Of a stretch of 64,000 nt of DNA, positions 13,692-14,597 are shown one piece after another; position 1 is the first letter of the stretch; every line of letters begins with the position of its first letter. Below the pieces are notes generated by a model that was not told the origin of the DNA, searched no databases, and worked only from the letters and a program-made list of their open reading frames with translations. The position numbers were made by a program, and so were the translations under genes. The DNA is from Candidatus Helicobacter avicola (GTDB lineage Bacteria > Campylobacterota > Campylobacteria > Campylobacterales > Helicobacteraceae), in the NCBI GenBank assembly GCA_019112865.1, contig DXIN01000025.1, positions 5,498-69,497 of the forward strand, written 5' to 3'.

Positions 13692-14597
13692 ATGGATTTA
13701 CACTATTGGAACAACTACTACAAATCCCACCGACACAATGCCACAAACTCCCTCTTTAGCGTGTTTGTGTGCGAAAACTATCTCAAGCCTCACGCACGCC
13801 TCCTAGAGCTTGGCTGTGGCAACGGGCGCGATAGCGTGTATTTCGCCAAATCCGCCATACACACTACCGCAATCGATCAAGTCCAAAGTGAGATTGACTA
13901 TCTCAACACCCACTTTGGCAGTGAATCTTGCACTTTTGTGTGCGGGGACTTTAGCCAGCTCTCACACTTAGATTCTCTCACACCTCCTTATGATTGTATC
14001 TACTCACGTTTTAGTCTGCATTCTATCACACACGCGCAGCAGAGCGAGCTTTTCGCACAACTCCCACATTACCTAAGTCTTGGTGGAATCCTCGCCATTG
14101 AAACGCGTGGTGTGCGCAATTCCCTCTACCAAAAGGGCGAACGCGTGAGAGGCGAAAATAATGCGTTTATCTATGAGTCGCACTATCGGCGGTTTGTCGC
14201 ACTAGAGGATTTGCTCGCTGATATACGCGCGATCAATACAGAATCCAGCACAATACCCAATGCCAAGCCTCCGACAAAGCCCCACACAGAATCTACTCTA
14301 GATTCTCAAGCACGTCTTGTAGAATCTAGCACGCACCCTAAAGCCTTTGAGATTCTCTACGCACAAGAATCTCGTGGCTTTGCGCCATTTACGCAAGGTA
14401 AGCGATACGAAGATGATTACTTTATCCGTGTTATCGCGAGATTTAGAGATTCTCTCGGGGGGGGGGTAAATAGATATATCATAATAGTATATTTCTCTCC
14501 TAAAAAGCCCCATACAAACCACCACCCTCGCCACCCTCGCACACACACCCGCGCCGTGTTTGTAAGCGCGCGCAGCATAGACAAGGAGGCAGTATGA
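13692..14597 (+). CDS. Class I SAM-dependent methyltransferase; the C-terminal ~44 codons are a poly-G-dependent read-through extension
   Basis: SAM-binding motif [16 protein letters not shown]. Rossmann-fold methyltransferase pattern through ...[10 protein letters not shown]10 tract lies at codons ~256-259. The stop overlaps the pepM start (ATGA). Confidence 0.8.
14457..14466. repeat. Homopolymeric G10 tract at the 3' end of the methyltransferase gene, 128 nt upstream of the pepM-fusion start codon
   Basis: Ten consecutive G read directly from the sequence. G9 would give an immediate TAA stop and G11 would give GGT AAA TAG. Confidence 0.95.

Follow-up and report, generated by a model that had tools for sequence, protein, structure and literature searches.

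The stretch of DNA analysed here, hereafter the window, comprises 64,000 nucleotides (nt) of Candidatus Helicobacter avicola and corresponds to C18:5498-69497 of the host genome (1.76 Mb, 42.5% G+C, 42 contigs). A run of ten guanines (G10) lies near the 3′ end of a gene for a class I S-adenosylmethionine (SAM)-dependent methyltransferase, directly upstream of a gene encoding a fusion of a cytidylyltransferase (PntC) and a phosphoenolpyruvate (PEP) mutase (PepM), which is followed by the ppd and adh genes. The downstream genes probably build a carbon-phosphorus surface decoration, and the comparative data described below suggest that the tract is probably a random on/off or high/low switch. The junction and its surroundings contain the following features:

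13692..14597 (+), open reading frame (ORF) of the class I SAM-dependent methyltransferase, 301 amino acids (aa), with Pfam Methyltransf_25/23/11 at residues 38-158
13692..14465 (+), methyltransferase core, 258 aa, equal to the G9 form and delimited by the Pfam domains and the ends of homologues
14457..14466 (+), poly-G tract, G10 as sequenced, the putative slipped-strand switch
14466..14597 (+), read-through tail of the G10 phase, 43 codons and a TGA, stop-free and not protein-like
14467..14473 (+), TAAATAG, adjoining stops for the phases that do not read through (TAA for G9 and G12, TAG for G11)
14478..14555 (+), spacer segment resembling a Rho utilization (rut) site, C-rich and G-poor (34 C and 6 G in 78 nt)
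14480..14485 (+), CATAAT, a -10-like hexamer of putative function in the AT-rich proximal spacer
14492..14511 (+), pyrimidine stretch (TTTCTCTCC...CCCC), a conserved alignment block with predicted RNA pairing to the G tract (minimum-free-energy folds of seven orthologues)
14583..14589 (+), AAGGAGG, Shine-Dalgarno (SD) sequence of PntC-PepM, invariant in the alignment and not occluded
14594..15916 (+), PntC-PepM fusion (Pfam CTP_transf_like and PEP_mutase; NCBIfam PEP_mutase, 412.6 bits, above the cut-off)
15926..17338 (+), phosphonopyruvate decarboxylase, ppd (NCBIfam TIGR03297, 322 bits, above the cut-off)
17352..18422 (+), phosphonate-type Fe-alcohol dehydrogenase, adh (best match PsrA/Phn_Fe-ADH, below the cut-off)

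PntC-Ppm fusions activate phosphonates as cytidine monophosphate (CMP) conjugates for cell-surface tailoring (PMC6697681).

Frame outcomes and length variation of the tract

The first base of the tract occupies codon position 1 of the methyltransferase ORF, and its length dictates where translation ends. As sequenced, the G10 tract is read as GGG GGG GGG GTA AAT AGA TAT and the frame continues for 43 codons beyond GGG to a tail ending in KEAV, whose TGA (14595-14597) overlaps the ATG of PntC-PepM (14594-14596) to give ATGA. A G9 tract instead reads GGG GGG GGG TAA and a G11 tract GGG GGG GGG GGT AAA TAG; past the tract, the three frames run on for 0, 1 and 42 codons. The tract position, the G9 and G11 stops and the ATGA overlap are all as the initial annotation had described them, and reading the frames bears out its claim that only G10 of the three lengths it compared carries ribosomes to the overlap; the tail, which it had put at about 44 codons, is real and one codon shorter. 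The tract comes after both the methyltransferase domain and the family's last conserved motif, and homologues that lack a tract end 1-6 residues past this motif. The tract is thus a 3′-terminal one that produces alternative C termini with the catalytic part intact. Judged from these predicted boundaries, it leaves the methyltransferase core whole in every state, as had been proposed, and is not an off-switch for the methyltransferase. Downstream, the CATAAT hexamer begins 13 nt past the last G, within an AT-rich stretch.

Ten guanines exceed the length at which homopolymers become slippable (about 8 or more), and the host genome is rich in such runs. G/C runs of at least 10 bases occur 64 times, where about 0.5 are expected from composition, so that the tract at 14457 is not a chance occurrence. 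Runs of 9-13 bases number 93 (2.5 expected) and runs of 7-8 bases are depleted (7 against about 52 expected), which is the signature of a large repertoire of contingency loci.

Tract length varies in nature. Among Logan contigs that match the window at 99% identity or more, the tract is G10 in X1-X5, X8 and X9, G11 in X6 and X7, and G9 in X10 and X12, and the X11 contigs end at the tract; the sequencing runs in which the stretch is present come from gut metagenomes of chickens or birds. In the databases, proteins from this species end in ...SLGGG, ...SLGGGG (G12) or ...SLGGGGK. When protein clusters are counted as contigs, the window's own 90% cluster contains 54 read-through forms (301 or 297 aa) and 14 short forms of 258, 259 or 260 aa, 12 of which end in ...GGG (G9), one in ...GGGG (G12) and one in ...GGGGK (G11). 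In the sister species, read-through and short forms number 13 and 11 in a second cluster and, among the matches listed, 59 and 24 in a third and fourth cluster together. Read-through forms are therefore in the majority, as expected of a favoured ON state. Locus L006 (G10) and loci L008 and L009 (G9) are otherwise near-identical, and at the assembly level near-identical sequences thus differ in tract length, the hallmark of a contingency locus. An invariant tract, which the initial annotation had named as evidence against a switch, is consequently not what natural assemblies and proteins show, with lengths ranging from G9 to G12.

Conservation of the open spacer frame

The tract sits at the same codon, after the last conserved motif, in at least nine Helicobacter lineages whose methyltransferases are 57-83% identical. 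In all orthologues two of the three frames stop 0-6 codons behind the tract, at the same or an equivalent pair of early stops. The spacers that follow measure 127, 190, 109, 109, 118 and 148 nt, and every one of these lengths is 1 mod 3 even as the sequence diverges between lineages past the first ~45 nt. The frame leading to ATGA contains no stop in any lineage, compared with two to eight stops in each of the other two frames (in the window, 0 compared with 5 and 2). In dinucleotide shuffles the probability of an open frame is 0.114, 0.007, 0.18, 0.07, 0.08 and 0.08 for six lineages; the product is about 7e-8, an underestimate of the joint probability given the shared ancestry of the lineages. 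At its far end, the upstream stop overlaps or abuts the downstream start as ATGA or TAATG in orthologues, the arrangement characteristic of translationally coupled cistrons. From this comparison, we infer that the read-through frame is kept open by selection in the lineages examined. Of the two mechanisms that the initial annotation had entertained, translational coupling and altered promoter spacing, it is the former that the comparative data favour, since the read-through frame is open in every lineage examined.

The same design persists when the downstream genes are exchanged. At two loci of the window's own species (L016 and L017), PntC-PepM is swapped for adenylyl-sulfate (APS)-kinase/pyruvate phosphate dikinase (PPDK)-like and gamma-glutamyl-CDP-amidate-hydrolase-like genes (4266-7824), so that, by NCBIfam assignment, an O-methyl phosphoramidate (MeOPN)-type pathway stands in place of pntC-pepM/ppd/adh. 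The tract and proximal spacer are unchanged and the distal spacer is different, and the frame is open for 38 codons to a TAATG overlap. In H. monodelphidis (L010, 46% identity), a G12 tract leads into one frame that has no stop over 39 codons and ends at a TAG 13 nt short of the start. At locus L021 of G125 (near base 2176, reverse strand), two G-to-C changes break the tract (GGCGGGGGCGGGG); the read-through frame is thereby fixed, and no stop interrupts the tail ahead of ATGA.

Several further arrangements were observed at this junction. The breakpoint of the cassette exchange falls inside the spacer, and in L001 and L022 ten codons from the start of PntC survive as a relic ahead of the APS-kinase-like gene. 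In H. cinaedi-like relatives (L025, L027 and L037-L040), a poly-G tract lies ~45 codons before the methyltransferase end, inside a variable insert; one frame gives a complete enzyme and another is open for 53-87 codons to the ATGA of the next gene. Complete H. cinaedi genomes (P0058 and P0059) hold the out-of-frame form. A G17 tract occupies the same C-terminal position in L011 (3701-3717, 43% identity), at a contig end, where the tract may have broken the assembly.

The tail encoded by the open frame does not resemble protein. In a codon-usage log-odds model built from 560 long ORFs of the genome, the tail scores -0.009, compared with 0.318 for the 100 codons before the tract and 0.343±0.145 for the final 40 codons of genuine genes, 98% of which score positive. 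Among close pairs, substitutions in the tail are spread evenly over codon positions 1/2/3 (12/15/16), whereas those in the core concentrate at the third (49/32/148; chi-square p = 8e-4). Between the window and L003, 13% of the tail has changed, compared with 32% of synonymous (third-position) sites in the core; the tail is therefore constrained at the nucleotide level and not at the codon level. Because non-coding codon usage and evenly spread substitutions coincide with an open frame, it is the passage of ribosomes through the spacer, and not the tail peptide, that appears to be under selection.

These observations bear on the possibility that the tract switches only the tail, with the short methyltransferase and the form bearing 43 additional residues differing in stability, location or partners and any effect on pepM being incidental. 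Switching of C-terminal sequence is the accepted reading of C-terminal phase variation in H. canadensis (Snyder et al. 2010, PMC2823697) and N. gonorrhoeae (Zelewska et al. 2016, PMC5320596), and the first ~14 tail residues (N-R/K-Y-I-I/V-I-...-P-K) are indeed fairly conserved; the tail is hydrophobic at first (YIIIVYF), then basic and rich in P and H. Its length (36-63 aa) and sequence are otherwise unconserved, however, the codon usage and substitution pattern are those of non-coding DNA, and the tails end on the next start codon even after cassette exchange, all of which make this explanation unlikely.

We consider it quite unlikely that the tract has no regulatory role, being a hot spot that is tolerated past the catalytic domain, with the open frame a leftover of an older and longer gene end. 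Such neutrality would fit a catalytic core that is retained in all three phases and a genome with 93 such tracts, some of which may be neutral. A G10 run decays fast without selection, yet the tract is found at the same codon in at least nine lineages; spacers have gained or lost 18-81 nt between lineages and the frame was never broken; and the frame has been re-established on a different downstream gene.

Proposed ribosome gating and Rho polarity

With moderate confidence, we interpret the tract as a conserved slipped-strand switch that would gate translational coupling and Rho polarity into the phosphonate genes, setting their expression high or low. The switch would be placed exactly where the methyltransferase domain ends, so that the phase of the tract sets the point at which ribosomes stop after the methyltransferase. 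With G9 or G12 (TAA) or G11 (TAG), ribosomes would be released immediately and 127 nt of C-rich, G-poor RNA would remain untranslated before PntC-PepM. With G10, and also with G7 or G13, the spacer would be translated and termination would occur at the TGA overlapping the PntC-PepM ATG. Terminating ribosomes could then re-initiate at ATGA, translation would shield the spacer from Rho and ribonucleases, and pntC-pepM, ppd and adh would be fully expressed. In the other phases, expression would be expected to drop through lost re-initiation combined with Rho-type polarity. The predicted outcome is a stochastic high/low switch of phosphonate supply that would operate independently of the transferase switch at 8547, upstream in the same operon.

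The composition of the spacer is consistent with a role for Rho. When all 78-nt windows in the genome are ranked by how C-rich and G-poor they are, segment 14478-14555 exceeds the 99.9th percentile; its orthologues fall between the 93rd and 100th percentiles. An ~80-nt C-rich, G-poor stretch after a stop, as Rho-dependent polarity calls for, is thus present and conserved in orthologues. Lying directly behind two early stops, the spacer has the rut-like composition predicted for a Rho loading site, and the genome encodes Rho (TIGR00767, 677 bits, C19:39587-40825).

Coupling by unmasking of the SD sequence, in the classical manner, was considered and rejected. In folds of the spacer and start from seven orthologues, AAGGAGG is not masked (probability of being unpaired 0.30-0.56, equal to or above that in shuffled spacers), and because it is as accessible as in the shuffles, any coupling is not of the SD-unmasking kind. 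The SD of the MeOPN-type allele is weak (AAAGAG), and re-initiation would therefore matter more there.

Several points weigh against this interpretation. The length variation was seen between assemblies, where homopolymer consensus errors are possible. The open-frame probabilities of single lineages are not independent, given their shared ancestry, and C-richness alone lowers the frequency of stops. A rut-like composition is not common to most of the other 3′-terminal tract junctions of the genome, and it had to be discarded as a rule for all such junctions. The strong, unoccluded AAGGAGG makes independent initiation at pepM possible, and the switch may therefore be a modest volume control. 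In addition, all lineages have kept a -10-like hexamer, 13-20 nt downstream of the tract, and an internal promoter could uncouple downstream expression from upstream translation.

This hexamer also underlies the proposal that an internal promoter containing CATAAT drives pepM-ppd-adh, with the G tract, at about -23 to -36, modulating its strength by length. Homopolymer tracts in promoter spacers are well known from porA, opc, fim3 and hif, and the present tract resembles them in lying near a -10-like box; all orthologues carry CATAAT, TATAAT or TATATT at this distance. Unlike in those genes, there is no -35-like hexamer 16-18 bp from CATAAT (the nearest T-rich hexamer upstream leaves a 24-nt spacer), and the tract lies upstream of, not inside, the promoter spacer. 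Since it is not between two hexamers, a change of 1 bp has no obvious effect on spacing. A scan of 13600-14800 against a sigma-70-type consensus returned no promoter, a result of limited weight, as a -35 box is dispensable in Helicobacter promoters. AT-rich hexamers are moreover easily found in any AT-rich 30-mer, and a promoter would leave the stop-free frame, the 1-mod-3 spacers and the ATGA/TAATG endings unexplained. The promoter-spacing alternative of the initial annotation does not fare well against these results, and we regard modulation of an internal promoter by the tract as very unlikely, although the -10-like box retained in all lineages makes an internal promoter as such conceivable.

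In H. pylori, the target of RepG is a G repeat of variable length that lies far upstream of the tlpB ribosome-binding site, and RepG also affects the co-transcribed hp0102 (PMC8295292). Gradual tuning of pepM by repeat length, through a RepG-like C/U-rich small RNA or through pairing with 14492-14511, has this precedent (PMC8295292) in its favour, together with orthologue folds in which the G tract is base-paired to a conserved UUCUCUCC..CCCC segment, but it is highly improbable, as it does not explain the three-periodic design of two early stops and one open frame, and an Rfam scan of 14300-14750 gave only a chance match, no search aimed at a RepG homologue having been made. In the folds of all orthologues, an AT-rich loop of ~25 nt separates the tract from its pairing partner, UUUCUCUCC...CCCC (14457-14511 in the window).

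Related systems, genome-wide tracts and operon context

Phase variation is commonly sorted into promoter, 5′-coding and (unexplained) C-terminal classes. By definition the tract at 14457 belongs to C-terminal phase variation, a known phenomenon, with a poly-G of at least 10 at the 3′ end and three C termini, often two very short and one longer. The likeness to the H. canadensis case extends to the carriers, which are surface-glycan loci of enterohepatic Helicobacter. The published readings invoke a change of protein sequence or a gene fusion and leave the downstream cistron unconsidered (PMC2823697, PMC5320596). Unlike in those readings, the long frame here is not protein-like, and it ends on the next start, pointing to control of the downstream cistron. 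Full-text searches that combined phase variation with translational coupling turned up no account of a 3′-terminal tract that gates coupling.

The G10 phase resembles termination-reinitiation coupling at ATGA or TAATG in that the stop overlaps the start with an SD sequence just before it. It differs from the usual form in that coupling would depend on the length of a hypermutable tract lying 127 nt upstream, and in that the SD is already unmasked. Lavitola et al. 1999 reportedly showed Rho-dependent polarity for meningococcal siaD. In C. jejuni, Rho termination after premature stops has been proposed for frameshifted contingency genes (PMC3025981), and phase switches gated by Rho through DNA inversion are known for fim and C. 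difficile flgB (PMC12360218). What these systems share with the proposed switch is a stochastic change in DNA that exposes rut-like RNA to Rho and affects downstream genes. Unlike in those cases, where the gene itself is off or a segment is inverted, the upstream enzyme is intact here, and the polarity element would be a dedicated non-coding spacer behind the tract.

If the C-terminal class gates ribosome traffic into the following cistron, one tract would be able to switch a whole downstream pathway and leave the upstream enzyme intact. It would also be a simple natural case of a polarity element, consisting of a stop, a rut-like spacer and a re-start, that depends on a hypermutable repeat. 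Combinatorial surface chemistries would then arise in operons with more than one tract, such as the present one (8547 and 14457). The switch bears on the variation of phosphonate and phosphoramidate decorations in gut Helicobacter, which are likely targets of phage and host immunity.

The C. jejuni MeOPN locus (cj1415c-cj1422c, including the methyltransferase gene cj1420c) contains capsule-modification genes controlled by poly-G tracts. Both loci combine a SAM methyltransferase with transferases of a phosphorus-containing surface decoration and poly-G tracts, and an allelic variant of the window locus holds MeOPN-type genes. The C. jejuni tracts, unlike that of the window, are treated as intragenic ON/OFF switches.

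Twenty tracts of the genome are positioned close to the 3′ terminus of an ORF that encodes 150 aa or more and have two frames that reach a stop in no more than 12 codons; at 15 of these the third frame ends on, or no more than 10 nt from, the start of a long downstream ORF. The genes upstream of the bridged tracts belong to unrelated families (the methyltransferase, CTP_transf_3 paralogues, a GT9-like enzyme and a GT1/GT4 enzyme), and, with one exception, the tails behind 3′-terminal tracts score as non-coding by codon usage. This wider pattern of bridge junctions is suggestive only. We tentatively raise the possibility that 3′-terminal poly-G tracts in enterohepatic Helicobacter are, in general, intercistronic 'ribosome-bridge' switches and not protein-tail switches, the phase of which would gate translational coupling and Rho polarity into any downstream cassette. 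The conceivable design, put forward equally tentatively, comprises a hypermutable tract followed at once by stops in two frames, and a non-coding spacer whose third frame is kept free of stops as far as the next start codon. In support of such a class, we count the dozen or more junctions of this kind that this genome would carry and the interchange of phosphonate and phosphoramidate cassettes behind the same tract.

An array at C10:4694-21384 (L043) contains about nine paralogous CTP_transf_3 (CMP-sugar synthetase-like) genes, most of which are followed by a 3′ poly-G tract and then a spacer open in one frame to the next start (GTGGCATGA junctions). The long open tails of this array contain GAATCT-type in-frame repeat elements, which are stop-free by nature; because of these repeats and the paralogy of the genes, the tails were set aside as independent proof. 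Tract flanks in the genome are stereotyped, with (g)CTCTC-G(n)-NAAT(T/A) in 29 and (A/T)-G(n)-CA(A/G) in 61. The motif G(n)-TAAATAGATAT-(tt)CCCTAAAAGA is found again at unrelated loci and in differing reading frames, so that the similarity is one of DNA.

Upstream of the methyltransferase, the operon contains the following features:

8306/8532..10124 (+), TagF-like transferase, out of frame at the 8547 G11 tract, with the frame restored by G10
8547..8557 (+), first poly-G tract of the operon, G11 (OFF); G10 fuses ORF 8306 to ORF 8532..10124
10121..10624 (+), small ORF
10629..13691 (+), YidC-like/sulfatase-fold protein

The tract at 8547, G11 in the window, is G10 in X3, X4, X7 and X8, and varies independently of that at 14457. 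The following pairs were found:

window and X1, 8547 G11 (OFF) with 14457 G10 (read-through)
X3, X4 and X8, 8547 G10 (ON) with 14457 G10 (read-through)
X7, 8547 G10 (ON) with 14457 G11 (stop)

Three of the four combinatorial states foreseen in the initial annotation are thus seen in contigs, and the full set is plausible.

Homologues all come from Helicobacter. A 35%-identical methyltransferase homologue occurs in a Methanobrevibacter metagenome-assembled genome (L002), and many Firmicutes homologues are fused to an APS-kinase-like domain. Between 9000 and 12100 of the window, the contigs of other samples break, jump and invert repeatedly.

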